A stretch of 32,000 nucleotides of DNA, from the NCBI GenBank assembly GCA_026625185.1, contig CP113000.1, positions 3,042,651 to 3,074,650 on the forward strand. Reading direction: 5' to 3'. The notes beneath the pieces were generated by a model. The model did no database searches. It worked only from the letters and a program-made list of their open reading frames with translations, and was not told the origin of the DNA. Below, one piece after another: positions 10,913 to 31,436 of this stretch. Made by a program: the position numbers and the translations under genes. Within the stretch, counting starts at the first letter, position 1. Each line of letters begins with the position of its first letter. Source of the DNA: Thermodesulfobacteriota bacterium. GTDB taxonomy: Bacteria; Desulfobacterota; WTBG01; JAGOGO01.

Positions 10913-11755
10913 TCACTTTGGAACACGCTCAAGAAATTTCACCATCTCTGTCAGCACTGGTATCTGGCCTTGATCCTGCAAATGCAAAAGATGACCAACA
11001 CCCTTAATCTGGGCGCAGCTTACATTGCTGAAATCCTGTTGAAGCCTGGAAATTTCATCATCCGTCATTACCGCACCCAGCTTTGTCTCACCCCGAATGA
11101 ACATTACGGGACAATTAATCCTCGTGAGTGCCTGTTTATAGTCATAACCTTTGGTAAAGCCGCCAAAATCAAATAACAGGTTATTGAAAAAAGTGGGATC
11201 AAGCTGCCACAGGCATCCGGCAAAAAATAAAATCCATGCACTGGTTACACCTGGATAATCTATATATTTGTCTGCTAACGACAAGGATAGTTCTTGTTCA
11301 GTTTGCGACGATCTCTTCAGATCCAACCAAATACTAAACATGTCCCGGCTTGAATCTATAATCCTTTTATAGTTATCCAAGGTCAAAGCTGGATCTTCAA
11401 TGATCAGAGCTTTCACCTTTTCTGGGCAACGAGCGGCGACCATGAGCGCTATCACGCCGCCAATGGAGTGACCTATCAGAACGGTCGGCGCGTTCAATTG
11501 TTTTACAAATTCCACGTTATCTTCTGTAAAATCTTCCAGGCGATAGTTCCCGGCAACCCAGCCTGATTTGCCATTCCCTCTCAAATCCAAAGCATATATA
11601 TGCCATCTTTGAGATAAGCTTGGGATAAGAGAAAGATATTCTTGCCAGCACCAAGCGCCCCCGTGCAGCATGACTAACGGTTCGCCCGATGAAAAGCCAT
11701 AATCAAGATAATTTATTTTCACCTTTCCGGTATCAAAGAATTTTTCTTGGTCCAT
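10913..11755 (-). CDS. Alpha/beta-fold hydrolase
   Basis: HGGAWCW oxyanion-like region, nucleophile elbow GHSIGG and a C-terminal GVGHLLH. The ATG at 11755 is preceded by GGAAAGGTGG; the track start GTG 11764 is less likely. Confidence 0.8.
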   Translation of the reverse strand: MDQEKFFDTGKVKINYLDYGFSSGEPLVMLHGGAWCWQEYLSLIPSLSQRWHIYALDLRGNGKSGWVAGNYRLEDFTEDNVEFVKQLNAPTVLIGHSIGGVIALMVAARCPEKVKALIIEDPALTLDNYKRIIDSSRDMFSIWLDLKRSSQTEQELSLSLADKYIDYPGVTSAWILFFAGCLWQLDPTFFNNLLFDFGGFTKGYDYKQALTRINCPVMFIRGETKLGAVMTDDEISRLQQDFSNVSCAQIKGVGHLLHLQDQGQIPVLTEMVKFLERVPK

Positions 11756-12149
11756 ATTTACCACCTTTCCTTTTATAACTGCAGTCCTAACTAACCAAAA
11801 TTAAATGATAAAAATCTGTTTTGAGACAAGAAAGGGAACGGCTCTAATGGCAATACCACATCCTATAACCTTTCAGCATTAATCAATTTATTATTCACAG
11901 AACAGTGTTTTTATTGATCTGTAATGATTAAAAAACAAACTTAATTTCTTAGTGGTATAGGGGAGTGGAGGGAATTAATTCCAATTGGCAAAATTTTTTC
12001 AAATTTATTTTCAGCCTCCAAAGGCCTTACAAAAAAAAATCTTAAGATGCATGGTGAAGCGAGGCTGTCACCAGAGAGAAAATTACATCAGCATAGGGTT
12101 ATCCCACGCCGATCAGGAAAAGGAATAATATTAACCCAAAGTGTTCGTT

Positions 12150-13451
12150 TCATTTTTTGTTCGTCAGATAAATACTTCTCAACCTATCCAACCGATCTTT
12201 TGAAAAGAAAATGCAATCAGTTTTTTTGGCCTCACCAGAAGCAATATCATTTGCCAATGCTTTGCAACTAGGCGCACCGCATAATCCGCAATTAAGGCCA
12301 GGCAAAGTGGTGAGGATGGCTTCAGCTTCCTTAATTCTTTTAATGCGTTCTTTAAGGTTACCCATATCTCCTTTGATAGAACGCGGCTTGAGGGGTGCTT
12401 TGAGGAAAAAATCTTGGGAGGAATAACGTTTTTCTACTTCTGCTTCAATGACTGGACTTTTCTCCGGAAGTTCGGTTACCAACCGATGCAATTTACTGCG
12501 CGCAACATAGAAATTATCAACCGTGAGATTTCCGTTGGTACACCCTCCCCAGCACGCATAACATTCCAAAAAGTCCACTAAGCGCATTTTGCCTTTTTCG
12601 ACGTCATCAAAGACGTGGATAACGTTTCTTAGACCGGTGAGGGGAATATAATGAAAACCATGAAGGTTCCGGCGTTGGCCCCTCAACACCCCTTGAAACA
12701 TTTCTGCGCTAAAAAAAATATCTTTTTCCGGGATTTTCGACTCGCTTTCTTTAGAAGACTGTGCATAGGTTAAAATAGCATTGTAAACATCTGAAATGCC
12801 GATACCGCCGTCCAGATAGCTTTTAGCCCCCTCGGCGGGCTCGACAATAGAAATGCTTTTGGCCTGGCATGGTGTCACATGGATCGCCGCTACTTCATCT
12901 GTGCTGATGCCGAGCATTTTTGCATATTTGCGCTTGGCCTCGCGGCCGGCGAGTTCACGCTGCACCTCAATCGGAAGCAATTGGCCGATCATCCCAGGAT
13001 AGGCAACTTGGATGAGTCTCACAATAACAGGACAATAAGGTGGTATTAAAGGGAAGGGACCTTTCCATTGAGCAACAAATTCCCGGATGGCCTTATTGAC
13101 AAGCGCATTTTCAACCGATAGAATATAAACAGCATCAAAACCGATAGATTTGAGCCCTTCTATAATTTGAGCGGAAGATATACCGTCCGGGAACTGGCTA
13201 AAGAGAACGGGCGAAGGAACCGCAACTTTATATTTATTTTTCCACACGGCTTTTAAAGAGTGGGTGGTAGCGGATATGGCCCCAGAAGGGCATGCCTTCA
13301 GGCAATTGCCGCAATCAATGCATAATTCAGATATAACTTCGGCTTTGCCGTCCTTGACACGGAGGGCTTGCGTAGGGCATCTCCCCATACAGGCAAGCTT
13401 GCCCCGGCATTTATCACGGTCGATTTTAAAGGCATGAGTTATTTCACGCAT
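12150..13451 (-). CDS. [FeFe]-hydrogenase-like Fe-S protein: 2x[4Fe-4S] ferredoxin domain, H-cluster-like domain and a C-terminal RnfB-type Fe-S domain; putative sensory/regulatory
   Basis: CRGKLACMGRCP and CIDCGNCLKACP mark the ferredoxin domain. PPYCPV, VTPCQAKS and ECYACWGGCTNG resemble H-cluster motifs L1-L3. LNCGLCGAPSCKAL...C marks the C-terminal domain. The likely start ATG 13451 overlaps the upstream stop. Confidence 0.7.
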   Translation of the reverse strand: MREITHAFKIDRDKCRGKLACMGRCPTQALRVKDGKAEVISELCIDCGNCLKACPSGAISATTHSLKAVWKNKYKVAVPSPVLFSQFPDGISSAQIIEGLKSIGFDAVYILSVENALVNKAIREFVAQWKGPFPLIPPYCPVIVRLIQVAYPGMIGQLLPIEVQRELAGREAKRKYAKMLGISTDEVAAIHVTPCQAKSISIVEPAEGAKSYLDGGIGISDVYNAILTYAQSSKESESKIPEKDIFFSAEMFQGVLRGQRRNLHGFHYIPLTGLRNVIHVFDDVEKGKMRLVDFLECYACWGGCTNGNLTVDNFYVARSKLHRLVTELPEKSPVIEAEVEKRYSSQDFFLKAPLKPRSIKGDMGNLKERIKRIKEAEAILTTLPGLNCGLCGAPSCKALANDIASGEAKKTDCIFFSKDRLDRLRSIYLTNKK

Positions 13452-13890
13452 TGGAGTCAAGCCTTATACGGGCTAAAAGCTTTGTTCCTTTACCGACATC
13501 GGATTCTATTTTAAGAACGTCAGAATTTTTCTTGATATTTGGCAGCCCCATTCCGAAGCCGAAACCCTTTTCACGCATCTCGTCGGAAGCCGTCGAAAAC
13601 CCTTCTTGCATGGCCTGCTCGATATCCGGTATTCCAGGACCTTCATCCGCCACTTCGATATCGATTGCTTCATCAGTAATGACAAAACTGACCGTGCCTA
13701 TATTGGCATACATCACAACATTCATTTCAGCCTCGAATGCCACCACTAAAGCACGGCGGATGATGTCAGAATCGATCTCAAGCCCTTTGAGAATCGACTT
13801 AATCTCAGTTGATGTCTCACCCGCGGTATCGAAGTTATGGCCATAAACCGTAAAAACCCTTTTAAATAGTTCTTCTGAGTATACCGTCAC
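13444..13890 (-). CDS. Small histidine-kinase-like ATPase (HATPase_c, anti-sigma-factor/Ser kinase-like)
   Basis: 148 aa with ADEGPGIPDIEQAMQEGFS and GFGFGMGLPNIKK (N/G1/G2-box-like). The GTG start overlaps the upstream TAG. Confidence 0.7.
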   Translation of the reverse strand: MTVYSEELFKRVFTVYGHNFDTAGETSTEIKSILKGLEIDSDIIRRALVVAFEAEMNVVMYANIGTVSFVITDEAIDIEVADEGPGIPDIEQAMQEGFSTASDEMREKGFGFGMGLPNIKKNSDVLKIESDVGKGTKLLARIRLDSNA

Positions 13891-14234
13891 TACATAGCGC
13901 CTTTCATGTTATGTTCGCGCAAAATTCCGCATACATCGAACATCCCAAATTCGGTAGCCATCACCACAATATTTTTATCGCGCGCCAGGGCGATCAATTT
14001 TTCATTCGGCAACTTTCCGCGGATATACACAATAGCCCGCACATCGGCAATATAGGCGGTCCTAACGGATTGAATATTGGTGAGACCCGTGACCATCAAA
14101 GCACCGGGAGTGTGAAATGCCAAAATTTCACTCATGCCGTCAGAAGCCAAGACCGTATCTACTTCAAGGGACAAATCCAGATCACTAGTCAAAACGGTGC
14201 CGTGTAGAATATCCTTAATTTCTTCTAGCCTCAT
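13890..14234 (-). CDS. DRTGG-domain protein
   Basis: 114 aa with SDGMSEILAFHTPGALMVTGLTNIQSVRTAYIADVRAIVYIRGK, which fits the DRTGG domain pattern (LVTGG-like core). Accessory genes of this kind accompany HydABC-type clusters. Confidence 0.75.
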   Translation of the reverse strand: MRLEEIKDILHGTVLTSDLDLSLEVDTVLASDGMSEILAFHTPGALMVTGLTNIQSVRTAYIADVRAIVYIRGKLPNEKLIALARDKNIVVMATEFGMFDVCGILREHNMKGAM

Positions 14235-14312
14235 CTTGTCAGCATCCTCATCAGTAGTTTGTGCTTAGGAAATTATTTACTCACCTGACAGATCTAAAAT
14301 GTTACCCACTCC

Positions 14313-15710
14313 TTATTTGCTCCCGAAAAGCGTTGCATGCATGGATTTGGCAGCCCGGCGCCCTGCGCCCATGGCGCTGATCACTGTAGCCGCGCCGGTG
14401 ACCACATCACCTCCGGCCCAGATCCTCTCGCGGGAGGTCTTCCCGGTCTCTTCCTCAGCCACAATATTCCCTTTCTTGCCAACAGCCAACCCGGGGGTGC
14501 TCATCGGGATCAATGGATTCGGGCTATTGCCGATGGCGACAATCACGGCATCGGCCTTCATTTTAAACTCGGAGCCTTTTATCGGAATGGGACTTCGGCG
14601 GCCGGATGCATCGGGTTCACCGAGTTCCATTTTAATACACTCAATCTCTGTCAACCATCCCTGCTCATCACCGGTTAACCTCACCGGCAAAGTCAGGTAG
14701 TCGAAAATCACACCTTCCTCTTCGGCATTTTCCGCCTCTTCCGCCCTGGCCGGCAATTCTTCTTTGCTTCGGCGGTACACAATATGTGACTCATCAGCAC
14801 CGAGGCGCAGGGCGGTTCTTGCCGAATCCATCGCGACGTTCCCGCCCCCAAACACCGCCACGCATCTCGGACGCTTCATGGGAGTATCATAGGCAGGGAA
14901 CCGGTACCCTTTCATGAGATTACACCGGGTGAGATATTCATTGGCCGAGTAGACACCATTGAAATTTTCCCCGGGTATGTCCATGAACCAGGGCAGACCG
15001 GCACCGGCACCCACGAAGACCCCGTCAAATTCTTGCAGAATGCTATCAATGGTCCTGGTCTTTCCGACGATGTAATCCAGATAGAGTTTCACTCCAAGAC
15101 TTTTGACATATTCGACCTCTCGTTTGACAATAGCCTTAGGCAAACGGAATTCAGGGATACCGTAGGTCAAGACACCCCCCGCCTCATGCAAGGCCTCGAA
15201 TATCGTTACGGCATACCCAAGCAGGGCGAGATCATTGGCCACCGTAATTCCGGCAGGGCCCGAACCAACAATGGCAATCTTCATTCCGTTCAAGGCCGCC
15301 ATGGCCGGGGTTTCAGTCTTGCCGCGAGCTGCCTCCCAGTCCGCTAAAAACCGTTCGAGCCGGCCTATGCAAATTGATCCCCCTTTCTTGCCTAAAATAC
15401 AGTGAAGCTCACACTGTTCCTCCTGCGGACAGACGCGTCCACAGACGGCCGGGAGGGCATTAGTCTCTTTGAGCTTTTTAATGCCGGCAGCATAATCGCC
15501 GGCGACAATGCATTCGATAAAAGCAGGGATGTTGATACCCACCGGGCACCCTTCGCGACACAACGACTTTTTACAGTGAAGGCATCGGCCGGCCTCTTCC
15601 CGTGCCAACTCTTCCGTGTAACCAATCGCCACTTCGTCGAAATTTTTGACGCGCTCAAAAGGCTCTTGCTTCGGCATGTGCCGTCGCTCATAATCGATTT
15701 GCTTGGCCAA
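14313..15710 (-). CDS. nfnB: NfnB: NADH-dependent reduced ferredoxin:NADP+ oxidoreductase large subunit (GltD-like)
   Basis: 465 aa with an N-terminal 2x[4Fe-4S] region CLHCKKSLCREGCP...CGRVCPQEEQCELHC and the dinucleotide folds IAIVGSGPAGITVA and VAVFGGGNVAMD. The TTG start is preceded by GGAGGGAG. Confidence 0.85.
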   Translation of the reverse strand: MAKQIDYERRHMPKQEPFERVKNFDEVAIGYTEELAREEAGRCLHCKKSLCREGCPVGINIPAFIECIVAGDYAAGIKKLKETNALPAVCGRVCPQEEQCELHCILGKKGGSICIGRLERFLADWEAARGKTETPAMAALNGMKIAIVGSGPAGITVANDLALLGYAVTIFEALHEAGGVLTYGIPEFRLPKAIVKREVEYVKSLGVKLYLDYIVGKTRTIDSILQEFDGVFVGAGAGLPWFMDIPGENFNGVYSANEYLTRCNLMKGYRFPAYDTPMKRPRCVAVFGGGNVAMDSARTALRLGADESHIVYRRSKEELPARAEEAENAEEEGVIFDYLTLPVRLTGDEQGWLTEIECIKMELGEPDASGRRSPIPIKGSEFKMKADAVIVAIGNSPNPLIPMSTPGLAVGKKGNIVAEEETGKTSRERIWAGGDVVTGAATVISAMGAGRRAAKSMHATLFGSK

Positions 15711-15728
15711 TTTCTTCTCCCTCCACCA

Positions 15729-16562
15729 TCAATAGTGAGATGCACAACCGCTCTTGTGCAATGGGTAAACCTCTTCCGGATTGTAGGTCCGGCGCCGGTT
15801 CAGAAACTCAACCCAATCCACGTCACGACCATCAAAGTCCGGACCATCCACACAGGCAAATTTGGTTTTGCCCGCCACCGAGAGTCTGCAAACGCCGCAC
15901 ATGCCGGTGCCGTCGATCATGATCGGATTCATATTAACCATTGTCTTGATAGCCATCTCCTTGGTGATCTGCGACACCTTCATCATCTGAAAAGTACAGC
16001 CGTTGACGATGATTCGATCAGGCCGGATCTTCTCCATGGCAATTATCTCAGGGAGCCGGGCAAGATGTCCCTTATAGCCGCTGGTGCCGTCCCGGGTGAT
16101 TTCGATGACGCGCTCTGAAAGGGGTTTAAACATCTCCTGCCAATAAAGCAGATATGCGCTTCGTGCCTCGAGGATTGTATATAGGGTGTTGCCGGCTTCT
16201 TTTAATGCACGAGCTATGGGAAAAACACTTCCAATGCCATAACAACCACCAATGCATAGCACGGTTCCAAAATTCTGGATCTCTGTTTCCCGGCCAAGAG
16301 GACCTGCAAAGGTAGGGATCTCCCCACCCGGTTTAAGTCTGGCCAGCTTTGCCGTTGAGGCCCCAACTTGCATAAATATAGAGGTTACCGTGCCTGCCTC
16401 CCGGTTCCAATCAGCAACTGAAAGCGGCACCCGTTCGCCGGTTTCATCCGGTCGCACGATTACAAAGTTGCCTGGTTTAATCGAGTTGGCAACCTCCGGT
16501 GCCTCGACGATAAACTCATGCAGGTTGGGCACGATCATCCGGCGTTCGATTATACGATACAT
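15729..16562 (-). CDS. nfnA: NfnA: small subunit (ferredoxin-NADP reductase/PyrK-like, FAD plus 2Fe-2S)
   Basis: 277 aa with an FNR-like fold (RPLSVAD-type RVPLSVAD, GGCYGIG) and a C-terminal cluster motif GTGMCGVCR...C. GGAGG lies 6 nt before the ATG. Confidence 0.85.
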   Translation of the reverse strand: MYRIIERRMIVPNLHEFIVEAPEVANSIKPGNFVIVRPDETGERVPLSVADWNREAGTVTSIFMQVGASTAKLARLKPGGEIPTFAGPLGRETEIQNFGTVLCIGGCYGIGSVFPIARALKEAGNTLYTILEARSAYLLYWQEMFKPLSERVIEITRDGTSGYKGHLARLPEIIAMEKIRPDRIIVNGCTFQMMKVSQITKEMAIKTMVNMNPIMIDGTGMCGVCRLSVAGKTKFACVDGPDFDGRDVDWVEFLNRRRTYNPEEVYPLHKSGCASHY

Positions 16563-16637
16563 TCTCTGCCTCCAAGCGATAGGTGCTTCTTTAAAACCGG
16601 TTTTCTTTTGCGTTTTTAAAATAACTATTTCTTCAAC

Positions 16638-19166
16638 TCAATATCTATTGCTTTCTACTGCTCCTATACTCACCCTGATCGGACTGGATTCCAAACCGTA
16701 AAGCAACTCAAGCCCTTTACAGTCCGAGAGGCCCCCGAAATTTACCGGATGAGAAAGGTAGGCCACTCCAACCGGGCATTCCGAATCCGCCTTGGTGGTG
16801 ACAATGAGTTGCTTGCCATCCACAATAAGGCTCACCTCCTCACCGGCCGCAAGCCCCCGTTTGGCCAGATCATCCGGATGCAGGCGCAGCCCCCGCTCTA
16901 TTGCCAGTTCCTTTAAGCCCTCCACGACATAGGAGAGATCGATCCCTCGGTGCTGAAAACCGGCCGGCTCGACGACCAGGAGCATTTCCCCTGTGCCGAC
17001 AGGTGAATGATCCCTCTTTTCGATAGTAAGGTCGCTCGTGGCTTTCAACAAACGCGGCTGCCGGTCCGGCCTGGCGGGAAAGCCGGGTATGGTCTCATGG
17101 ATTTCCCTTAAGATCTCTTCTTCATTTTTAAACTGCAGGTCCTCGCTGTCCAGTTGTTGACCCAGTTCAGAAAAGATCTTCCAATCCGGTCGCACGAAGC
17201 CGGTCACCGCGCCATCGGGCAGGTTTTCTATCTTTACAAGCTCCTGGACCCGGCCCTCGATATTGGTCAAGGTGCCTCCGGCCTCGGCAAAACTGGCGGC
17301 CGGCAGAAAGGCATCCACCGGGAACGGCGGGTAATAAATATCCTGACTGATCAGATAATCGCAATCCGGCCGCTCCTGAAACGGGGCCTGGCCGACAAGG
17401 TAAATCACCTTGGGCCGTTTCTGTTTCTTCATCACATCAGCGAGGGATATTCCTTGCTTTTTGGATTTGGCCCCTCCGGGAAGCAGCTCACCAAAGGCGC
17501 CAAGCTCAATGGAACCGCGCACATTGCTGCCGTGGTAAAGAGGCACAAAAATTGTGTCCTTGCGCTTTGCCAATTGGAAAATCGCATCAACCAATGCGGT
17601 GTTGTCGCCATATTCAAAAACAGTCGGAGAAATAATGACCGCCAGGTTCTCACCCTTATCCAGTGACTCTATTGCCTTTTTCAATCTGTCTTCATCCAGA
17701 CCGGCCTGCTTGGAAATGGATTTTAAACTGCCCTTCTTTCCTCCGAGGCGTTGCGCCATAAAACTGAGGAGCATTCCTTCCGCGCCGGGCCTGGGCCGCA
17801 GCCAGTGATCAGTATAGCGGGCCAGGTTCGAATCCCGGGCATCGATGGTCACCAGATCGGCTCCTTTCTTAAGAGCGCGACGGATCTGAACTCCAACCAC
17901 TGAAAAATAGAAACGGGAATCGAGGCCTACCGCTATAATGGAATCCGCCTCGGCAATGCCCTTGATGGAAATGGGGAGCGAAAAGAGCTTGCTCCACAGA
18001 CCCAGGCCACCAGGGAGACTCAAGCGAGCGGTGGAATCAATGCTGTCACTTCCCAGGCAGTGCCGCACAAACTTCTGGGCAGCATAAAGGCTTTCATTAG
18101 TAAGATCGCCGGAAACAACCATGAGGAATTCGTCCTTTTTGAGGCCCTTGAGTTTACTAACCACCTCTGTCTGGGCCTCAGGCCAGGTCACCTCGCGGAA
18201 GTATTTACCGCGTCTGAGCATCGGTTTTTTGGCGCGCTCGTGATAGTGGGTTGCCTCCGGCAACGAGAACCGGCCTCGCACGCAAAGCTGACCGTCATTG
18301 ATCTCGCTATCGAGATTGGGGTAGACTTTGGAAAGCCTTCCGCCCTTATGATGGAGATCAATCTGGCAACCGATGCTGCAAAAGGGACACGTGGAAATCT
18401 CTATCCCGTCAGGCTTTCCATCCCACTTGGAGCTTTTATCCGCCAGGGCGCCGGTCGGACAGACCGAAACGCAGGCACCGCAGAATTCACAACCGGCCTC
18501 CACGTGATTCTTGCCAAAGGAGGGCCCGATTTGCACCTTGGGCCCCCGGTATTTGAACGATAGAATCGAAGTGCCGCGCAACTCCTGGCACATCCTAACG
18601 CAGCGCCCGCAAAGGATGCAGACATTATAATCCCGGTCAAAAAAAGGATCATCATGCTCTGCTTCATAGCCGCGGTAATAAACCGGATAGGTGATTTCGG
18701 CCAAGCCGATCCTTTCCACGACGTTTTGCAGCTCACACTGATTGTCATTCGGGCAATAGCGGCAGCCGGTGCTCACGCCGGTTTTTCGGATCGTATATTG
18801 ATACTGCTTGCATTCCTCGCTTTCACCGCAAACCAGACAACTCGAGGGATGCTCACTCAGGATAAGCTGCAGAATTTCCTTGCGCATGTCCCTCAAAGTC
18901 GCGGTATCGGTCAGTATCTTCATGCCCTCCTCAGCAATGGTGCTACAGGCCAGCGGATATCCGCGCATCCCCTCAATCTCGACGATGCACATGCGGCAGC
19001 CGCCAAAAGGGCTCAGATCCTTGTGCGAGCAGAGAGAGGGGATGTAGACGTTGTTCAGTTCCGCAACCCTGAGTACTGTGGCCCCTTCCGGGAAAGAGAC
19101 GGTGCGGTGGTCGATTTCCATCTTAAATGTTTGTATTTCCTTTGATCGGCTAAGTTTTTCGGTCAC
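16638..19166 (-). CDS. NuoG/FdhA-like Fe-S and molybdopterin-fold subunit lacking the catalytic Cys/Sec (SfrA-like)
   Basis: The N-terminal 2Fe-2S motif is CRMCIVEIEG. The His/Cys cluster motif is HPSSCLVCGESEEC, and a second copy follows (CRYCPNDNQCELQ). Two further ferredoxin-type motifs are CILCGRCVRMC and CEFCGACVSVCP. MopB Fe4S4 motifs are STCPFCSIGCQIDL and GQLCVRGRF. A C-terminal Molydop_binding-like barrel is present. The start is uncertain: GTG 19166 with GAGG upstream, or ATG 19121. Confidence 0.8.
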   Translation of the reverse strand: MTEKLSRSKEIQTFKMEIDHRTVSFPEGATVLRVAELNNVYIPSLCSHKDLSPFGGCRMCIVEIEGMRGYPLACSTIAEEGMKILTDTATLRDMRKEILQLILSEHPSSCLVCGESEECKQYQYTIRKTGVSTGCRYCPNDNQCELQNVVERIGLAEITYPVYYRGYEAEHDDPFFDRDYNVCILCGRCVRMCQELRGTSILSFKYRGPKVQIGPSFGKNHVEAGCEFCGACVSVCPTGALADKSSKWDGKPDGIEISTCPFCSIGCQIDLHHKGGRLSKVYPNLDSEINDGQLCVRGRFSLPEATHYHERAKKPMLRRGKYFREVTWPEAQTEVVSKLKGLKKDEFLMVVSGDLTNESLYAAQKFVRHCLGSDSIDSTARLSLPGGLGLWSKLFSLPISIKGIAEADSIIAVGLDSRFYFSVVGVQIRRALKKGADLVTIDARDSNLARYTDHWLRPRPGAEGMLLSFMAQRLGGKKGSLKSISKQAGLDEDRLKKAIESLDKGENLAVIISPTVFEYGDNTALVDAIFQLAKRKDTIFVPLYHGSNVRGSIELGAFGELLPGGAKSKKQGISLADVMKKQKRPKVIYLVGQAPFQERPDCDYLISQDIYYPPFPVDAFLPAASFAEAGGTLTNIEGRVQELVKIENLPDGAVTGFVRPDWKIFSELGQQLDSEDLQFKNEEEILREIHETIPGFPARPDRQPRLLKATSDLTIEKRDHSPVGTGEMLLVVEPAGFQHRGIDLSYVVEGLKELAIERGLRLHPDDLAKRGLAAGEEVSLIVDGKQLIVTTKADSECPVGVAYLSHPVNFGGLSDCKGLELLYGLESSPIRVSIGAVESNRY

Positions 19167-19173
19167 GGTAACC

Positions 19174-21045
19174 TCACGATTCAATGATGATGGCATCGCC
19201 GGCTATGGCGTCAAAACGACAGATTTCATAACAAGAGCGGCACTTGATGCACTTGCTCTCATCCAGATTATGCACCTCGGAACGGGGTCCGGTGATCGCC
19301 CCGGTCGGACAGACTTGGACACAGCGCTGGCACCCCGTGCACTTCTCCTTGATGATACGATAAACGACCAGGTCGCGGCACACCGCTGCCGGACAACGCT
19401 TGTTTACGATATGCGACAAGTACTCCTCGCGAAAATATTTGAGGGAGGTAAAAACCGGATTGGGCGCGGTCTGGCCAAGACCGCAGAGTGAGGCGCCCTT
19501 GATTGCACCGCCCAGCTGTTCCAACTTGGCCATGTCCGCGATCTCGCCCTTGCCCTTACATATCTTTTGGAGAATGTTGACAAGATGCCGGGTCCCGACC
19601 CTGCAGGGCACGCATTTTCCGCAAGATTCGGCCTGCGTGAAGCTTAGAAAATACTTGGCAGTGTCCACAATACAGGTATCTTTATCAATGACAATCAGGC
19701 CCCCTGAGCCCATGATCGATCCGGCCTTGCCCAGATTCTCATAATCAATTGGTGTGTCCAAGAATTCCTTTCCCAGACATCCTCCGGAAGGGCCACCGGT
19801 CTGTACGGCTTTGAACTCCTTGACCAGACCCCCGCCAATATCGAAAATCACCTGGCGCAACGTAGTACCGAGCGGGACTTCGATCAGTCCGGTGCGCCTC
19901 ACCTTACCGACCAGGCTGAAGGTCTTGGTACCCTTTGAGGTCTCGGTGCCGTATTGCGCATACCATTCGGCGCCGTTGCGGATGATGTTCGGTAGTGTCC
20001 CCAGCGTTTCCACGTTGTTGATAACGGTGGGTTTACCCCAAAGTCCGGATACGGCCGGAAACGGCGGCCGGGTGCGCGGCATGCCTCTCTTGCCTTCAAT
20101 GCTTGCAATGAGGGCGGTTTCTTCACCGCAGACAAAGGCGCCGGCACCTTCCTTGATCTTGATGTCAAAGTTAAAGTCGGTTCCCAGGATATGATCCCCA
20201 AGCAGTTCCATTTCCCTCATGTCCGCGATAGCCCGTTTCAGCCGTTCAATGGCCAGGGGGTACTCTGCCCGGATGTAGATGAAGCCCTTGGTGGCGCCCA
20301 GGGTGTAGGCGGCGATCAAAATGCCTTCCAGCAGGGCATGAGGATCACCCTCGATCAGTGAGCGGTTCATGAAGGCCCCGGGATCACCTTCATCTGCATT
20401 GCAGATTAAATAGCGTTCATCGCTTGCGGTTTCCCGGCTAAAAAGCCACTTGCGCCAAGTGGGAAAGCCTGCACCGCCCCTGCCGCGCAGACCCGCGTGC
20501 TTGACGACGTCAAGCACGTCCAGCCAGGGCAAGGAAAGGCTTTTTTCAATTGCCTTATAACCATCGCGGGCTAGATAGTGATCCATATCTTCAGGATCAA
20601 TGATGCCGCAGTTTCTGAGGACGATCCGGACTTGGGAACCAAGCATGGGGTGCTCGAAAAATTTCGGTACCTTGTCAATGGTCGCTTCTCCGAAATGACC
20701 CAAGAGGCGTGGTTTATAAATCTCTTTTTTCTCAAAAAACGAATCCAAGAGATGATTAATAGTAGCCGGACTCATATTGGAGTAGCTGATGCGCGGCTGG
20801 CCAGGCATCTGAATGTCAACCAGCGGCTCCAGGTAGCATGGCCCAATGCAGCCGACCCGCATCAATTCCGCGGCTATGCTTTTATTCTGTAGGTAAGATT
20901 CGATGGCGGTGATCACCTCGGCCGCTCCGGCCGCCAGCCCACAGGAACCGGCGCCCACATAAATCAGAGGGCGTTTGTTGTTTTGGAGTTGAATCCACTT
21001 CTTTTCCGCTTTATGACGACGTTCTTCGATCTTATTTTTGTTCAT
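19174..21045 (-). CDS. NuoF-like NADH/FMN subunit of HydB type (extra N-terminal thioredoxin-like 2Fe-2S domain and C-terminal 2x[4Fe-4S] domain)
   Basis: 623 aa with GSCGLAAGA...GCIGPCYLEP at the N-terminus, GLRGRGGAGFPTWRKW at the FMN/NADH site, ESCGKCVPCRVG for the N3 cluster, and C-terminal CTGCQRCVQVCP and CIKCRSCYEIC. Confidence 0.9.
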   Translation of the reverse strand: MNKNKIEERRHKAEKKWIQLQNNKRPLIYVGAGSCGLAAGAAEVITAIESYLQNKSIAAELMRVGCIGPCYLEPLVDIQMPGQPRISYSNMSPATINHLLDSFFEKKEIYKPRLLGHFGEATIDKVPKFFEHPMLGSQVRIVLRNCGIIDPEDMDHYLARDGYKAIEKSLSLPWLDVLDVVKHAGLRGRGGAGFPTWRKWLFSRETASDERYLICNADEGDPGAFMNRSLIEGDPHALLEGILIAAYTLGATKGFIYIRAEYPLAIERLKRAIADMREMELLGDHILGTDFNFDIKIKEGAGAFVCGEETALIASIEGKRGMPRTRPPFPAVSGLWGKPTVINNVETLGTLPNIIRNGAEWYAQYGTETSKGTKTFSLVGKVRRTGLIEVPLGTTLRQVIFDIGGGLVKEFKAVQTGGPSGGCLGKEFLDTPIDYENLGKAGSIMGSGGLIVIDKDTCIVDTAKYFLSFTQAESCGKCVPCRVGTRHLVNILQKICKGKGEIADMAKLEQLGGAIKGASLCGLGQTAPNPVFTSLKYFREEYLSHIVNKRCPAAVCRDLVVYRIIKEKCTGCQRCVQVCPTGAITGPRSEVHNLDESKCIKCRSCYEICRFDAIAGDAIIIES

Positions 21046-21484
21046 CGAGAATCCCCTGAAGTTTCAAAACAGACATCTGGGCATAGATTTTAGTATCTAA
21101 GGTAAACACCGGAGCAAGCGCACAACAACCCAGACAGGCCACCCGTTCAAGGTCGTACTTGCCATCTTTTGTTGTTTCTCCGGGATTTAATTCAAGCCGG
21201 CGCTTCACCACCTCGATCATCTGCTCGCCTCCCTTGACGTGGCATGCGGTGCCCAGACAGACTCTGAGATGATGCTTTCCCCGTGGTGTGAAGTGAAATT
21301 GGGCATAAAAGGTGGCAACTCCGTAGATCTCGTTTTCAGAGATCTTGAGCCAGCGCGATATCCGGCTTAATGCGTCCTGGGGTAGGTACCCATAAACCGA
21401 CTGGACTTTCTGTAATACGGGTATGAGATCCGCGGGCTCTCCCTTGAATTCCTCTTCAATCGTTTCTATCGGGCTACTGGCCAT
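21032..21484 (-). CDS. NuoE-like [2Fe-2S] subunit (HydC type)
   Basis: CLGTACHVKG and CLGCCALAP. The ATG at 21484 is preceded by AGGAGGA with 8-nt spacing. The 3' end overlaps the nuoF-like start by 14 nt. Confidence 0.9.
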   Translation of the reverse strand: MASSPIETIEEEFKGEPADLIPVLQKVQSVYGYLPQDALSRISRWLKISENEIYGVATFYAQFHFTPRGKHHLRVCLGTACHVKGGEQMIEVVKRRLELNPGETTKDGKYDLERVACLGCCALAPVFTLDTKIYAQMSVLKLQGILDEQK

Positions 21485-21733
21485 GGTCAATATCCTCCTC
21501 TAACACGCAATGCGGCCATTTCAAAGATGGACGTTTTCCAAGATAGTTTCAAAACGGCTTTTTAACTTCAATGTGATCAAGATATCTTCTCTAATGCCTG
21601 ACCACAAGGAAATAACTCTCACAAGAAAGATGGGTTTGAAACAGCCTCTTCTGTGCTAACTTTAGCTCCCCGTTTCTGAATTTATTTCTCAACAGCTTAA
21701 TTGAATTATAGTAACCTGATATTTTTAATCGGA

Positions 21734-21778
21734 ATGGGGTAACGCAGGGAGCCAGTAAGACGACCGGAGTTACCCCAT
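21734..21778 (-). promoter_or_regulatory. Long hairpin in the untranslated region upstream of the nuoE-like gene
   Basis: A perfect 10-bp inverted repeat ATGGGGTAAC (21734..21743) / GTTACCCCAT (21769..21778) encloses a 25-nt segment. That segment can form a second 5-bp helix (CCGGU/ACUGG). A perfect TATAAT (minus strand, 21710..21705) lies just downstream. Confidence 0.35.
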
Positions 21779-22209
21779 CGCCGGCAAAAACGAAAGAAGT
21801 TCGCCATGAGTGTAGGCGAAGATAAAAATATCTTACCAAATAGTTTAACTGAGGGAAAGAAGAATAATGGCAATTTCAAGCCAGGTCCACCAGAGTCTGT
21901 ACATTGAATTCTGCCGGATAGGGGAGAGTCTGTTTTGCAAATGGCCAAGAAAGAAGAATAGGCAGATTTAGCCCACCGCATACTTGCCGTAATCCCTTGG
22001 AATTTGGATTTGTTTTTCGCCTCTTTTCCCGCGGTATATCGCATTTTGCTCTCTGCCAATCTGATGACAATGGGAAGGAAGTAAGCCATCAAAATAAAAA
22101 CATCTTGATACAATACCTAAAACTAATAATTCTTAATTCTAAACCAATGTCAGTGTGTGGTGTAATTATTCTTTGAGTTGAGTCATTGGCTCAGAAACTC
22201 GGCAGCAGT

Positions 22210-22539
22210 CTACTTGATACCGAGTTCAATGAGTTTGGACGCGAATAGCCAGGTATCAACTTCCGTACTAAAAAGTGCGATGCCAGCTTTACTTGCAAGT
22301 CCCACTACGTCCTCGGCAGGCTTTTTCCCCTTGGTGAAGACGATTGCCGCAACATCTACCAGGTTTGCAGCGGCAATAAGGCTCTTGTGGGTCTGGAGTG
22401 TAATCAAAATTACATTGGCCTTGGCGTTGGTGATAATATCGGAAACCATATCTGAGATATATACTCCTTCAACCTCCTTATCTGTGTATTGATTGACAGA
22501 TTCAAGCCCGCTTTTTTTTTCGAGTTCGGATAGCTTCAT
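22210..22539 (-). CDS. DRTGG-domain protein (second paralog)
   Basis: 109 aa with DMVSDIITNAKANVILITLQTHKSLIAAANLVDVAAIVFTKGKKP, a layout similar to ORF 13890..14234. AAGGAG lies 5 nt before the ATG. Confidence 0.7.
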   Translation of the reverse strand: MKLSELEKKSGLESVNQYTDKEVEGVYISDMVSDIITNAKANVILITLQTHKSLIAAANLVDVAAIVFTKGKKPAEDVVGLASKAGIALFSTEVDTWLFASKLIELGIK

Positions 22540-22573
22540 AATATCTCCTTACATATTTATATCAACGCACTAT

Positions 22574-23095
22574 TTAATAAATCTCGGTAAGTCCCGTGTC
22601 GGCCAGGACTATGCCTCTACATCTATCAACACTGCAACACTGAATGCACGGCACAATAAGAATCTTCTTGCCGGGAGCCTTGATGTTCTGGTTGAAATAT
22701 TTATTGAGTGCCTCTATGCTTTCCTTACTGACACATTTCCCCGAAGAGTGCGTGCTGTCGGCACAGAGAGCTACATAAACCCAAGTTCCCATGCCTTCCT
22801 TTTTGGCAATCCTGGCAACATTGCATTGCGGGTCTTCACAGGTTGACATCATCAGACCCACCATGTCATCAAGCTTTGAAGTTTTGCCGCATTTTGTGCA
22901 CTTGAAATTGAATTTCACGGCCTGTGAACTTCCAAAGTACGCCCAAAAATGTTCACCTTCCTGATATTCATCTTTCGGGGCAACAACCTCGGTAGAAAAA
23001 AACGAAGACCGGGCTTTACATCTTGTACAACCCTCCACAACAAGATATCCGTAACGGATGTCGGCCATTTCCCACTTGTGAATACAACTACCCAT
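22574..23095 (-). CDS. Cysteine-rich protein of unknown function (zinc-ribbon-like CxxC pairs)
   Basis: 13 Cys residues, including CTRC, CTKC, CEDPQC and CIQCC...C. The ATG at 23095 is preceded by GGAGG (23107..23103) with 7-nt spacing; the track start at 23128 lacks an SD. No family recognised. Confidence 0.55.
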   Translation of the reverse strand: MGSCIHKWEMADIRYGYLVVEGCTRCKARSSFFSTEVVAPKDEYQEGEHFWAYFGSSQAVKFNFKCTKCGKTSKLDDMVGLMMSTCEDPQCNVARIAKKEGMGTWVYVALCADSTHSSGKCVSKESIEALNKYFNQNIKAPGKKILIVPCIQCCSVDRCRGIVLADTGLTEIY

Positions 23096-23116
23096 TGGTG
23101 GTCCTCCATTTCTTTT

Positions 23117-23139
23117 GATAGACATCATGAATGTCTATC
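23117..23139. promoter_or_regulatory. 9-bp inverted repeat in the leader of the Cys-rich gene
   Basis: GATAGACAT-CATGA-ATGTCTATC lies about 10 nt upstream of the SD. Confidence 0.3.
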
Positions 23140-23279
23140 CGAATTAGACAAAGACCTCTTTTCACCGTTTTACAGCTGTTTATGATCACTCTTTTTTTCA
23201 TTGGACAGGTTTTTGGCACTAATTTTTCTTATACCAACTTAAAATAATTAAAAAAAAAACGCATCTTCCGGTTGAATTT

Positions 23280-23309
23280 TATATATCACGGAAAAACCCG
23301 TTATGTCAA
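23280..23309 (-). promoter_or_regulatory. Sigma70-type promoter candidate (extended -10) for the Cys-rich/DRTGG genes
   Basis: On the minus strand: TTGACA (23309..23304), an 18-nt spacer ending in TGA, then TATATA (23285..23280). Confidence 0.4.
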
Positions 23310-23607
23310 GATAAATTGTTTCTTTTTGAAGTCTATTTTTTATTAACATAAAAACCCGGAATTTCCCGAACTGCTTTCAACCGACCGTCTCGTCTGGCTT
23401 CGGGATACACCAAAGCCAAACTGGGTTTTCGCAGGAGGGTATACTGACATAAATATCTTTATTTGTCAAATTATTTATTGCGTTTTTATTAATTAAAAAT
23501 GGTTTATTTTTTTTATCTTTATCCCCTTTAAGGTGAAAGAAAGACTACCAGCACCCATGCCATAGTTTAACAGTACAAATTATTACTCCTATTATTTCTA
23601 TCCTTGA

Positions 23608-24390
23608 TTACTTGGCAGATGGATAGTCTTGGTCAGATTGCAGTTTTCCTTCCTCGTCATACGTTTTTCTTTTTATCCTCAGTCCGTTTTGATAGGTGTC
23701 CAGAAATTGTATCTTCCCGTTCAGGTAATAAGTTTTACAGACACCATCCAACTTTTCATTGTTGAAATTCGCCTCCGCCATTAACTCACCGCTTTCAAAA
23801 TATAACTTCGTTATTCCTTCCTGTTTGTCGTTTTTATAGTTCCGCGCAGCTTTTAATTTTCCATTTTCATAATATTCCTTGTCTACCCCTTCCTGTTGCC
23901 CATTGATATACTTCTCTTCTCCCATTAATTTCCCGCTTTCATAGTATTCCTTAACTATCCCTTCCGGTTTCCCGTCCTTATAGATAATCTCTTCTTCTAA
24001 TTTACCGCTTACATAGTAACCTTTACTCAATCCTTCCGGTTTGCCATTCCGAAAGATTACCTCTTTCTTCAACTCCCCATTTTCATAATATTTCTTACTA
24101 ACACCTTCCAGCACCCCGGCTTTAAAATTCACCTCTCCTTTTATCTTCCCACTTTTATAATATTCTTTCGTCATTCCTTCTTGTTTGCCCTTTTTGTAAA
24201 ACGACTCATACTGCAATTTTCCGTCTTCATAATATTTTTTACTGATCCCTTCCAGCATTCCGTTGTTATAATTCCATTCCGCCTTTACCCTACCGTTCGT
24301 GTAATATTCTTTTTTGATTTCTGCCAACCCAAGCACAGGCCTAATCAAGGCTATCATAGATAAAAATATTAAACTTCTTTTGATATTCAT
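23608..24390 (-). CDS. Secreted MORN-repeat (YwqK-type) protein
   Basis: The signal peptide MNIKRSLIFLSMIALIRPVLGLA is followed by about 10 repeats of the Y(Y/F)xxGKLxxExxYKNGKxEG pattern. The ATG at 24390 is preceded by GAGGAG; an alternative ATG lies at 24405. Confidence 0.8.
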   Translation of the reverse strand: MNIKRSLIFLSMIALIRPVLGLAEIKKEYYTNGRVKAEWNYNNGMLEGISKKYYEDGKLQYESFYKKGKQEGMTKEYYKSGKIKGEVNFKAGVLEGVSKKYYENGELKKEVIFRNGKPEGLSKGYYVSGKLEEEIIYKDGKPEGIVKEYYESGKLMGEEKYINGQQEGVDKEYYENGKLKAARNYKNDKQEGITKLYFESGELMAEANFNNEKLDGVCKTYYLNGKIQFLDTYQNGLRIKRKTYDEEGKLQSDQDYPSAK

Positions 24391-24680
24391 AGCAATACTC
24401 CTCATCCTTTCTTTAACAAAAAAATCCGGGAATTCCTATCGCTCATAAACAAGCTCCTTTTCATTATCCTATAGGCATTAGTGTCAAAAATTGTCTGAAT
24501 AGAGTAAGAATATTGAGTAGAAAGTTTAAAGCATATGCGTTACCAAACCGACTAAAAATCCCTTGCTATTTGCGATTGGGATCTATTGAGCATGTCTACT
24601 TTTTATCAGCGCTGGTCCTAAATCCAGATCATCATCGACATATAAAACTTAAGAGCACCTCTAATAATTCCCAGTTTGTC

Positions 24681-24949: not shown

Positions 24950-25804
24950 TTAGCCTTTTTCTGGCAAATTTTTTAACCGTGCATAAGAAAAAACCGGACC
25001 ATCCTTGCAAACATAAAACGAACCGACATTACAGCGTCCGCACTTTCCGATGCCACACTTCATACGGTTTTCAAGGGTTGTGTAGATTTGCTCATCCTTA
25101 AACCCAAGAGCCAGGAGGTTCTTGATGACAAACTTTATCATTACTGGTGGCCCGCAGGTGATTGCGATGGCGTTTTCCGGGGATGGTTTTAAACGAAGAA
25201 GATTGTCAGGAACAACCCCCACGAATCTATCCCAACCGGCCTCTGGTACATCGATTGAAAGATGAACCCGAACATTCCTCCTCTGCCAAAAAACTGACTG
25301 TTCTGTTTGGAAATGGTCCTCACGGTAACAGAGGTCTGCGGTGGTACGGGCGCCGTAAATAATGTCTAACCCTCCGAATTCTCCCTTTTTGTCAAGAACA
25401 TACTGAATAATAGACCGTAAGGGCGCCTGGCCGATCCCCCCTCCAATGGTAATGATATTTTTCTGATACCATTCGTCCAACGGAAAGTTGTTTCCGTAAG
25501 GACCACGGATGGTGATCAAATCCCCTGCCTCCAGTTCGTGAATTGCCGAGGTTACCTTTCCCAGCTTCATGACACTAAAGTTGAGAAACTCCTTATTGGT
25601 AGGCGAGGAGGCGATCGATATCATGCTCTCCCCTACCCCGTTTATTCCCAGCATGGCACACTGACCGGGCTTGTGCTGAAACCTTTCGCGATATGCTTGG
25701 TCTTCTATCACCACCGCAAAGGTTTTGATGATCCTTTCGCCTGTGGTTTCCTGTTTAATGCTTTCAATCTTAGCTCGACGTGGAAGATATGGATTTTCTG
25801 TCAT
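24950..25804 (-). CDS. FlxA-like FAD/NAD(P)-binding oxidoreductase with a C-terminal [2Fe-2S] cluster (AsrB / sulfhydrogenase-gamma-like)
   Basis: 284 aa with an FNR-like fold (GGGIGQAPLRS) and C-terminal CGIGKCGRCNVG...C. The start overlaps the upstream stop (ATGA). Confidence 0.75.
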   Translation of the reverse strand: MTENPYLPRRAKIESIKQETTGERIIKTFAVVIEDQAYRERFQHKPGQCAMLGINGVGESMISIASSPTNKEFLNFSVMKLGKVTSAIHELEAGDLITIRGPYGNNFPLDEWYQKNIITIGGGIGQAPLRSIIQYVLDKKGEFGGLDIIYGARTTADLCYREDHFQTEQSVFWQRRNVRVHLSIDVPEAGWDRFVGVVPDNLLRLKPSPENAIAITCGPPVMIKFVIKNLLALGFKDEQIYTTLENRMKCGIGKCGRCNVGSFYVCKDGPVFSYARLKNLPEKG

Positions 25805-26817: not shown

Positions 26818-26828
26818 TTAGTTTATAC

Positions 26829-27806: not shown

Positions 27807-27811
27807 AAAGT

Positions 27812-30191: not shown

Positions 30192-30212
30192 GTTGTTTTT
30201 CCTGTGCTTGGG

Positions 30213-31349: not shown

Positions 31350-31436
31350 AAAATCCACCTTTCCTCACAAACAATCGCAGAACTAACGGAAGAGAGACTT
31401 TTTAAATTGTCCCTCCTCACCTGGCTCATATTAGGT

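Follow-up and report, generated by a model that had tools for sequence, protein, structure and literature searches.

For anaerobes that live near the thermodynamic limit, it is electron-bifurcating enzymes that set the energy economy. Two of them, Nfn and Stn/NfnABC, are regarded as alternative and nearly mutually exclusive links between the NADPH, NADH and ferredoxin pools (PMC7483475, PMC9304861). In enzymes of the Bfu family, the third-substrate module of the known members is a hydrogenase, a formate dehydrogenase (FDH) or a fused GltD domain. Here, we describe a string of five genes, nuoE-nuoF-bfuA-nfnA-nfnB, which places a Bfu core next to a complete NfnAB pair. The genes are located in a 32,000-nt stretch of DNA, hereafter the window, from a Thermodesulfobacteriota bacterium (GenBank assembly GCA_026625185.1, contig CP113000.1, positions 3,042,651 to 3,074,650 of the forward strand). 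An earlier note on the window had proposed that the five products form one composite bifurcating oxidoreductase. This proposal gains support from conserved synteny, natural gene fusions, the co-divergence of BfuA and NfnA, and the loss of the FDH active site in every BfuA that is linked to nfnAB. Judging from these sequence comparisons, we consider it probable that the five genes encode one soluble multi-subunit Fe-S flavoenzyme, in which a Bfu core would carry a whole NfnAB as its NADPH module.

The Stn/NfnABC enzymes of Sporomusa ovata, Caldicellulosiruptor saccharolyticus and Thermococcus sibiricus (8OH5, 9BOV, 9N5U) have a bifurcating core of a NuoE-like and a HydB-type NuoF-like subunit. 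Their NuoG-like subunit BfuA has a pterin-free FDH-like domain and an inserted GltD/NfnB-type module, with a site for NADPH and flavin adenine dinucleotide (FAD) and two [4Fe-4S] clusters, so that the chain is about 1170 aa long (range about 960–1240). This insertion is a precedent for plugging a GltD/NfnB-type module into a Bfu core (PMC10482914, PMC11829005). Stn lacks a homologue of NfnA, and a lysine ligand of the proximal cluster (K170) is strictly conserved in StnC (PMC10482914). In the FDH-like domain of Stn/NfnABC, clusters A4 and A5 make up a dead-end branch that is left unexplained (PMC11829005, PMC10482914).

The characterized NfnAB of Thermotoga maritima (4YLF) and Pyrococcus furiosus (5JCA) is a free two-subunit enzyme that acts on soluble ferredoxin. 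SfrAB, the NADPH-dependent soluble "Fe(III) reductase" of Geobacter sulfurreducens, consists of an FdhA/NuoG-like subunit in which the catalytic residue is missing and a GltD-like subunit for NADPH. A figure legend in PMC7483475 likewise gives its homology as an FdhA-like and GltD-like pair. In the class II benzoyl-CoA reductase BamB-I ("Bam-Bfu"), a Bfu/HydBC-type module (BamGHI) is coupled to a second flavin-based bifurcating module in one complex, which is a precedent for serial coupling (PMC9304861; bioRxiv 10.64898/2026.04.10.717634). The NAD-dependent formate dehydrogenase FdsABG and the Fdh-Bfu enzymes (6TG9, 9WXB) have the architecture NuoE/NuoF/NuoG-FdhA.

Results

Synteny and gene fusions connect BfuA with NfnA

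A scan with the BfuA protein as query and one genome per species gave 11 loci, seven of which had enough downstream sequence to be used. All seven, from metagenome-assembled genomes of Desulfobacterota and Planctomycetota with BfuA identities of 51–79%, showed the order nuoE-nuoF-bfuA-nfnA(-nfnB). A further 80 loci came from a scan of metagenomes in which an alignment of BfuA sequences was the query. Among the loci that extend 900 nt or more downstream of bfuA, the next gene was nfnA in 20 of the 21 loci where BfuA is at least 35% identical to that of the window, in 10 of 23 loci at 31–35% identity and in 2 of 24 loci below 31%. The gene cluster is abundant, in that the matches listed in the BfuA search comprise over 120 clusters of sequences with 63% identity or more.

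The same cluster was reached from the other side. The best 120 relatives of the window NfnA are 75–100% identical to it, and the three that were looked up, in metagenome-assembled genomes of Acidobacteriota, Aminicenantes and Krumholzibacteriota, all lie in this cluster. A protein identical to the window NfnA was also listed, from a metagenome-assembled genome of Thermodesulfobacteriota. Two of the three loci hold all ten genes of the wider string described below and the third is on a contig that is cut upstream. The spacing between bfuA and nfnA is 2 nt in one of the three loci, and the genes overlap by 1 nt in another. Thus, the search for the five-gene order in other genomes that the earlier note had called for shows that the two gene sets co-occur almost obligately in close relatives of BfuA. 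Since the arrangement is conserved across phyla, it is far beyond chance.

In-frame fusions of BfuA and NfnA were found for two of the best 120 BfuA homologs: P0081 (1153 aa, from an NCBI assembly) and P0120 (1140 aa, from a JGI metagenome). In both, a linker of some 30 residues joins BfuA to an NfnA whose start methionine has been replaced, and the next gene is nfnB. P0120 is surrounded by the full cluster, and the contig of P0081 starts within the preceding gene. A second type of fusion was observed in a distant lineage, about 43% identical in BfuA (L060:9031-11523, 830 aa; L062:4792-7278, 828 aa). Here, a BfuA with a shortened FDH-like domain is joined directly to NfnA; nfnB follows in L060, and the contig of L062 ends right after the fusion gene. 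BfuA-NfnA fusions have thus arisen independently at least twice. The presence of two fusion architectures on four contigs, which is evidence of the Rosetta-stone kind, suggests that BfuA and NfnA work in contact.

BfuA keeps many cluster ligands and lacks the formate dehydrogenase site

The best sequence matches of BfuA in the PDB are FdsA-type formate dehydrogenases (1e-80). However, the catalytic "ARVCHSP" of R. capsulatus FdsA aligns to "ARLS-LP" in the window, so that the Cys-His pair is gone. In an alignment of 85 relatives from the fetched loci, the Cys/Sec-His pair is absent from every nfnAB-linked BfuA, whereas more distant relatives without nfnAB mostly retain CARLCH or CARL(U)H. The score against the FDH model TIGR01591 is 172 bits, as compared to a cut-off of 666. 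The candidate assignment of BfuA as a Mo/W formate dehydrogenase was rejected, as the protein has no catalytic Cys/Sec with its His. Since the FDH-like active site is absent and only nicotinamide and ferredoxin sites remain in the cluster, BfuABC by itself would lack a third substrate.

The Fe-S ligands of BfuA are intact. Those of clusters A1 (C56, C67, C70, C84), A2 (H116, C120, C123, C129), A3 and A4 (two CxxCxxCxxxC motifs) and A5 (C270, C273, C277, C305) are invariant across 18 homologs, as in the BfuA subunits of the Bfu family. In the same 18 homologs, a second invariant C-x2-C-x5-C motif (C145, C148, C154; window positions 18735-18762) comes just after the H-x3-C-x2-C-x5-C of the His-ligated cluster. 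The motif is absent from ordinary FdhA/NuoG proteins, and the PDB alignments place it at about the position where the GltD domain is inserted in StnC. These residues may form an extra cluster or metal site and are a candidate docking point for NfnB. The Pfam search detected no Pyr_redox or Fer4_20 domain in BfuA.

A predicted bifurcating core is followed by a canonical NfnAB pair

The NuoE-like protein, BfuC, keeps the Cys motifs CLGTAC and CLGCC, and its gene overlaps that of its neighbour BfuB, as expected for the Bfu family. Residues 28–614 of the NuoF-like BfuB align over the full length of BfuB chains in the PDB, with 9bov_B (C. saccharolyticus NfnB) as the best match at 747 bits, followed by 7t2r_B (NiFe-HydB; 736 bits), 8oh5_B (S. 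ovata StnB; 734 bits) and 9n5u_B (718 bits). The protein has a thioredoxin-like domain at its N terminus and a 2x[4Fe-4S] domain at its C terminus, besides a site for flavin mononucleotide (FMN) and NADH and a [4Fe-4S] region of the N3 type. Thus, BfuB has the set of sites that marks the family: FMN/NADH, the B1 cluster, the extra C-terminal pair B3 and B4, and the N-terminal B5 site. Schut et al. (PMC9304861) report that the non-bifurcating homologs, R. capsulatus Fdh for example, lack the extra N- and C-terminal domains.

The C-terminal domain assigned to the NuoF-like protein in the earlier note was recovered as two Fer4 domains at residues 561–615 and by the full-length alignments to BfuB. 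The note had also assigned a HydB-type N-terminal thioredoxin-like 2Fe-2S domain, of which the fold holds and the cluster is uncertain. The domain is most similar to those of C. saccharolyticus NfnB and S. ovata StnB, and with three Cys only (C35, C66, C70) it has the same pattern as these two. The three-Cys site is occupied by Zn in C. saccharolyticus NfnB; in the model of Stn it is a [2Fe-2S] cluster (PMC11829005).

Both subunits of NfnAB scored above the cut-offs of their families and keep all cofactor ligands, so that the pair that was claimed to follow BfuA is complete. NfnA reached 331 bits against NF004862 (cut-off 220), has its best PDB matches in 5jca_S, the small subunit of P. furiosus NfnI (234 bits), and 4ylf_A (214 bits), and conserves the motif DGTGMCGVCR...FACVDGP (D-x4-C-x2-C...C). 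NfnB reached 566 bits against TIGR01316 (cut-off 472) and matches T. maritima NfnB (4ylf_B) with 544 bits, as compared to only 244–310 bits for the GltD domains of Stn/NfnABC. Its Cys motifs, IGRLERF (E119) and GIPEFR (R188) are those of T. maritima and P. furiosus NfnB. The glutamate of LERF, a proximal-cluster ligand, and the arginine of GIPEFR, next to N5 of the FAD, have been linked to bifurcation of the NfnB type (PMC10482914).

By its subunits, the predicted enzyme fits the Bfu family, and it contains what appears to be a bona fide NfnAB. Given its extra subunits and cluster A3, it would be of "Type 3" in the scheme of PMC9304861.

The cluster compared with described systems

The window cluster shares with Stn/NfnABC the bifurcating core, the NuoG-like subunit with its FDH-like domain, the GltD/NfnB-type module with two [4Fe-4S] and, probably, the substrates NADPH, NADH and ferredoxin. 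The differences concern the third module. BfuA is 852 aa long and NfnB is a separate protein; the PDB alignments of BfuA start at residue 570 of 9bov_A and 601 of 8oh5_C, past the GltD insert, which according to the papers spans roughly residues 92–565. Moreover, this type of cluster always has NfnA, sometimes fused to BfuA. The window NfnB has Glu in LERF at the position that, from the description in PMC10482914, we infer to be equivalent to the column of StnC K170. With a separate GltD protein, NfnA present and Glu instead of Lys as proximal ligand, we rejected membership in Stn/NfnABC (Type 1 Nfn-Bfu).

The similarity to characterized NfnAB extends over the full length of both subunits (214–234 bits for NfnA, 483–544 bits for NfnB) and includes the Fe-S ligands, the position of the Glu ligand, the Arg beside the bifurcating FAD, and the gene order nfnA-nfnB with a short gap. 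In contrast to the free enzyme, nfnAB is here nearly always located 3' of nuoE-nuoF-bfuA. BamB-I resembles the proposed enzyme in its combination of two bifurcating modules, but its second module is of the HdrA type and feeds a tungsten enzyme that reduces benzoyl-CoA, whereas here NfnAB takes this place and no other catalytic subunit is present. BfuA finds its best sequence match in FdsA; unlike FdsABG, the window proteins have no active-site Cys-His and BfuB bears the extra N- and C-terminal domains. SfrAB, set apart by its description as an FdhA-like and GltD-like pair in the figure legend cited above, differs in that it includes no NuoE/NuoF core and no NfnA.

The earlier note had asked whether an already characterized complex has this set of subunits. 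No complex of BfuABC with a separate NfnAB was found in the PDB or in the literature searched, which left most subscription journals outside its coverage, so that an earlier description is possible.

A further way of joining a GltD domain to a Bfu core was seen in other loci. A NuoF-like protein is fused in frame to a C-terminal GltD-like domain in L066:5451-8570 (1039 aa), and a shared reading frame implies the same fusion in L042, L053, L068, L072, L075 and L083; L066 is the one that was checked. This is another precedent for a GltD module on a Bfu core. The cluster type of L066 consists of nuoE, the NuoF-GltD fusion and a catalytically intact FdhA (CARLCH or CARL(U)H), with no nfnA. This cluster type is a third way of attaching GltD to a Bfu core and may encode an NADP-linked bifurcating formate dehydrogenase.

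Proposed enzyme and electron flow

We propose the following physical assembly, wiring, substrates and reaction direction for the five-subunit complex. BfuC and BfuB would form the FMN/Fe-S bifurcating core that reacts with NADH and ferredoxin. BfuA would be a catalytically dead, cluster-rich scaffold and wire. The NfnAB heterodimer would serve as the third-substrate module, in which NADPH and FAD are bound by NfnB, and NfnA provides a second site for NAD(H) and FAD. NfnA would dock on the C-terminal FDH-like domain of BfuA, and the [4Fe-4S] pair of NfnB would exchange electrons with the cluster chain of BfuA, instead of or besides free ferredoxin. By analogy with Stn/NfnABC, it is plausible that the A4/A5 branch is the docking and wiring point for NfnAB. 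The enzyme would interconvert the NADPH, NADH and ferredoxin pools, as do Nfn and Stn.

The suggestion in the earlier note of two potential bifurcating flavin sites requires a modification. Both modules are present with their ligands, but the Bfu site is an FMN/Fe-S "flavobicluster", not a flavin alone (PMC11829005). Because NfnB keeps residues of the bifurcation type, the two sites may act in series. We regard a two-stage machine of this kind, with the NfnB and BfuBC sites coupled in series, as a speculative and rather doubtful extension of the proposal. In the first stage, the FAD of NfnB would split the electrons of NADPH between NfnA, for the reduction of NAD+, and a low-potential branch into BfuA. 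In the second stage, the flavobicluster of BfuBC would split the electrons of this branch again, between NAD+ and ferredoxin (Fd). By simple bookkeeping, the net reaction would be 4 NADPH + 3 NAD+ + Fd(ox) -> 4 NADP+ + 3 NADH + Fd(red, 2 e-), whereas Nfn and Stn use 2 NADPH per NADH per Fd. With the physiological potentials of -380 mV for NADPH and -280 mV for NADH (PMC9304861), the scheme could push the acceptor to about -680 mV. In reverse, it would produce NADPH at half the cost in reduced ferredoxin. If true, this would be the first serial coupling of Nfn-type and Bfu-type sites and would give the "dead-end" A4/A5 branch a function.

Alternative explanations

An alternative to a single enzyme, which we consider unlikely but take seriously, is that one operon encodes two independent enzymes. 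In this case, a stand-alone NfnAB would be encoded beside a BfuABC whose third partner is located elsewhere or unknown, and the genes would be held together by co-regulation and shared NAD(P)H and ferredoxin pools. Several observations point in this direction and weigh against the proposed five-subunit complex. NfnAB is fully canonical and self-sufficient by sequence, being much closer to the stand-alone NfnB of T. maritima than to the Stn-type domains, and since it keeps the residues tied to autonomous bifurcation, it could work alone. The nfnAB genes occur in many neighbourhoods, including beside genes for bifurcating hydrogenases (PMC6405883). A metagenomic study noted Nfn genes "in close proximity" to fdhA and nuoE/F-like genes in Margulisbacteria and Saganbacteria and took them to represent a formate dehydrogenase and a separate Nfn (PMC6349859). 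In some relatives, bfuA and nfnA are separated by 160–375 nt, which leaves room for a separate promoter. Furthermore, our sample is biased, since most loci were found through BfuA and only three NfnA relatives were looked up independently. Finally, an AlphaFold2 (AF2) model of the P0120 fusion, built on a 60-row alignment, reached a predicted local distance difference test score (pLDDT) of 70.7 and a predicted template modelling score (pTM) of 0.58, with low-confidence Fe-S domains and a disordered linker, so that no docking geometry can be claimed from it.

Set against these points are the two or more independent in-frame fusions of BfuA and NfnA, the near-obligate synteny across phyla in the BfuA clade, some lineages of which have overlapping genes or gaps of 2 nt, and a dead FDH site that leaves BfuABC on its own with no site for a third substrate. 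BfuA and NfnA are also the tightest co-diverging pair. In distance matrices from 20 loci, they gave the highest correlation of the ten subunit pairs (r = 0.962, as compared to 0.914 for nuoE-nuoF and 0.904 for nfnA-nfnB), a ranking that is suggestive rather than decisive because all pairs correlate through shared phylogeny (r = 0.84–0.96). The fusions, the synteny and the co-divergence argue against NfnAB as a free heterodimer, although by sequence alone one is still conceivable.

In the window itself, the earlier note had named a strong promoter or terminator in the gap between bfuA and nfnA as a sign of separate transcription units. In this 75-nt gap, we found no promoter-like or terminator-like site, no Rfam family and no stable RNA structure (fold z-score 0.58).

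Far less probable than two enzymes is that the cluster as a whole is a hydrogenase, in which the [FeFe]-hydrogenase-like protein encoded at the end of the string is the catalytic third module of an NADP-linked enzyme of the HydABC type and NfnAB is accessory. This protein keeps all four Cys ligands of the H-cluster (YCP, TPCQAK, ECYACWGGC) and is syntenic in many loci. However, its proton-transfer Cys is replaced by Tyr ("PPYCP" vs "TSCCP"), and its matches to H-domain models are weak, at 72 bits with Pfam and 78 bits with the NCBIfam hydrogenase models, of which the cut-off is about 406–450. It always accompanies the DRTGG and HATPase_c genes, on either the upstream or the downstream side of the core. 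It is missing from many five-gene clusters (L009, L010, L019, L023, L027, L028 and L030 among them), and it also accompanies a different type of Bfu cluster (L075). This is how a regulator or sensor behaves. No Fe_hyd_lg_C domain was detected in BfuA with Pfam, and the NuoG-like subunit thus differs from that of HydABC, which bears the H-cluster. Based on the sensor features and the distribution of the H-domain protein, we rejected the hydrogenase reading.

That the first three genes encode an NAD(P)- or ferredoxin-linked (bifurcating) formate dehydrogenase to which Nfn is merely adjacent is the least credible alternative and, in our estimate, nearly negligible: public names of homologs include "formate dehydrogenase alpha subunit", the best PDB matches of BfuA are of the FdsA type, and PMC6349859 takes fdhA plus nuoE/F-like genes as such an enzyme, but the active-site motif, for the absence of which we rejected this reading, is retained by the true FDH relatives in our alignment and deleted from the window BfuA and all nfnAB-linked homologs, TIGR01591 falls far below its cut-off, and the homologous domain is pterin-free and inactive in Stn and C. 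saccharolyticus NfnABC (PMC10482914, PMC11829005).

Gene layout

Pfam, NCBIfam and PDB sequence searches recovered all five open reading frames (ORFs) that the earlier note had described, which lie tightly packed on the minus strand between 21490 and 14313, with the domain content as claimed (Table 1). The spacing was also as reported: nuoE shares 14 nt with nuoF, the GTG at 19166 follows a 7-nt gap that contains TGAGG, 75 nt precede nfnA, and an 18-nt gap, tggtGGAGGGAGaagaaa, containing GGAGGGAG, precedes the TTG of nfnB. Two start codons need comment. The nuoE gene is present, but the ATG at 21484 that had been taken as its start is located two codons inside the TTG at 21490. For bfuA the start is ambiguous, in that the GTG at 19166 is possible and public gene calls use the ATG at 19196 (homolog P0001).

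Table 1. Coordinates of the gene string, associated elements and an upstream Flx/Hdr-type string in the window.
Feature	Position	Strand	Description
NuoE-like / BfuC	21032..21490	minus	TTG start, 152 aa; thioredoxin-like [2Fe-2S] domain; PF01257 161 bits, NF005722 NuoE 147 bits
NuoF-like / BfuB	19174..21045	minus	623 aa; Complex1_51K, NADH_4Fe-4S, Fer4 x2 (Pfam)
NuoG/FdhA-like BfuA	16638..19196	minus	ATG start, 852 aa; Fer2_4, NADH-G_4Fe-4S_3, Fer4_Nqo3, Molybdop_Fe4S4, Molybdopterin (Pfam)
bfuA-nfnA spacer, 75 nt	16563..16637	minus	Ribosome-binding site GGAGG of nfnA; 12-nt palindrome
NfnA small subunit	15729..16562	minus	277 aa; PyrK-like FAD/NAD(H) protein, [2Fe-2S] site; NF004862 331 bits
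NfnB large subunit	14313..15710	minus	TTG start, 465 aa; GltD-like, NADPH/FAD site, two [4Fe-4S]; TIGR01316 566 bits
Cys-rich orphan	22574..23128	minus	M12 at 23095 is the likely true start (173 aa); accessory gene that is conserved with the cluster
Upstream DRTGG protein	22210..22539	minus	109 aa; 65–74% identical to the DRTGG gene preceding nuoE in L094, L096, L013
Downstream DRTGG protein	13890..14234	minus	114 aa; PF07085; syntenic in L001, L002, L004, L006, L013, L094, L096, L097
HATPase_c protein	13444..13890	minus	148 aa; PF02518 and PF13581, weak SpoIIAB match; resembles an anti-sigma-factor or serine kinase; syntenic
Sensory-type [FeFe]-hydrogenase-like protein	12150..13460	minus	436 aa; 2x[4Fe-4S], H-domain, C-terminal PF04060 Fe-S domain
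Terminator-like hairpin and T-run	12087..12113	minus	After the last gene of the string; 11 pairs
CCG-domain HdrB/C-like	30213-31358	minus	Flx/Hdr string
HdrA	28221-30191	minus	Flx/Hdr string
MvhD/FlxD-like	27812-28228	minus	Flx/Hdr string
Two Fe-S proteins	26829-27806, 25801-26817	minus	Flx/Hdr string
NAD-binding FlxA-like	24950-25804	minus	Flx/Hdr string

The conserved string exceeds the five core genes and extends on the same strand from 23128 to 12150, in the order Cys-rich orphan, DRTGG, the five core genes, DRTGG, HATPase and [FeFe]-hydrogenase-like gene. The hairpin at 12113-12087 is the highest-scoring terminator-like site within 11500-23500, and no such site was found in any intergenic gap between nuoE and this hairpin. 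The spacer between bfuA and nfnA contains a perfect 12-nt palindrome, AAAACCGGTTTT, at 16593-16604, which forms no stable hairpin and could be a protein-binding site.

The upstream DRTGG gene is separated from nuoE by a 720-nt stretch (21491-22209), as compared to about 90 to 520 nt in relatives, and the stretch is not conserved among them. The only ORF in it, at 21706-22113, is probably not a gene, because it has no Pfam match and a tblastn search of eleven genome loci did not find it. The GC content at third codon positions is 0.55–0.64 in exactly the five core genes, as compared to 0.42–0.52 in all 20 other genes of the window, including the neighbouring accessory genes. The pattern is weaker in relatives. 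Codon bias linked to expression may account for it, or else gene transfer may have replaced the core block.

Accessory and neighbouring genes

The Cys-rich orphan was found with tblastn upstream of the cluster in most loci, at 34–72% identity. Its family has only 168 matches among 5.8 billion proteins, all named "hypothetical". Several of them are encoded on contigs equal in length to contigs listed for BfuA homologs, and two carry a fused DRTGG domain. In the orphan protein, 10 Cys are invariant, plus His. It has no Pfam match, and its AF2 model (pLDDT 84.5, pTM 0.79) matches no PDB fold at E <= 0.001. It may be a metal-binding regulator or assembly factor that is specific to the cluster.

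DRTGG and HATPase genes accompany the operons of bifurcating hydrogenases. The DRTGG, HATPase and HydS-like genes shift position or are absent among the loci, and we interpret them as a regulatory module that may sense H2. According to PMC11406978, [FeFe]-hydrogenase genes of the sensory type (group C3) are usually co-located with those of the bifurcating (A3) type. In the window, the hydrogenase-like protein would be a putative H2 or redox sensor on an operon that, judging by its gene content, encodes no hydrogenase.

Upstream of the cluster, at 24950-31358 on the minus strand, is a Flx/Hdr-type string that resembles flxABCD-hdrABC of sulfate reducers (Table 1). With this string, two bifurcation-related gene sets are located within 10 kb. 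Between the Flx/Hdr genes and the cluster is a low-GC (0.36–0.37), strongly skewed stretch with a gene for a MORN-repeat protein of 265 aa (23608-24405, minus strand).

Significance

The cluster combines a complete Nfn and a Bfu core in what appears to be a single enzyme, and it is common in uncultured anaerobes. If the proposal is true, NfnAB would be a new type of module for the Bfu family, and the cluster would be a natural system in which to study the coupling of two bifurcation sites. For expression and cryo-electron microscopy, the fusions that occur in nature could be used as constructs just as they are. The proposal would also hint at a role for the side-branch clusters in the FDH-like domain of Stn/NfnABC. 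Finally, it would correct a widespread annotation as "formate dehydrogenase" in the metabolic reconstructions of sediment and wetland anaerobes.

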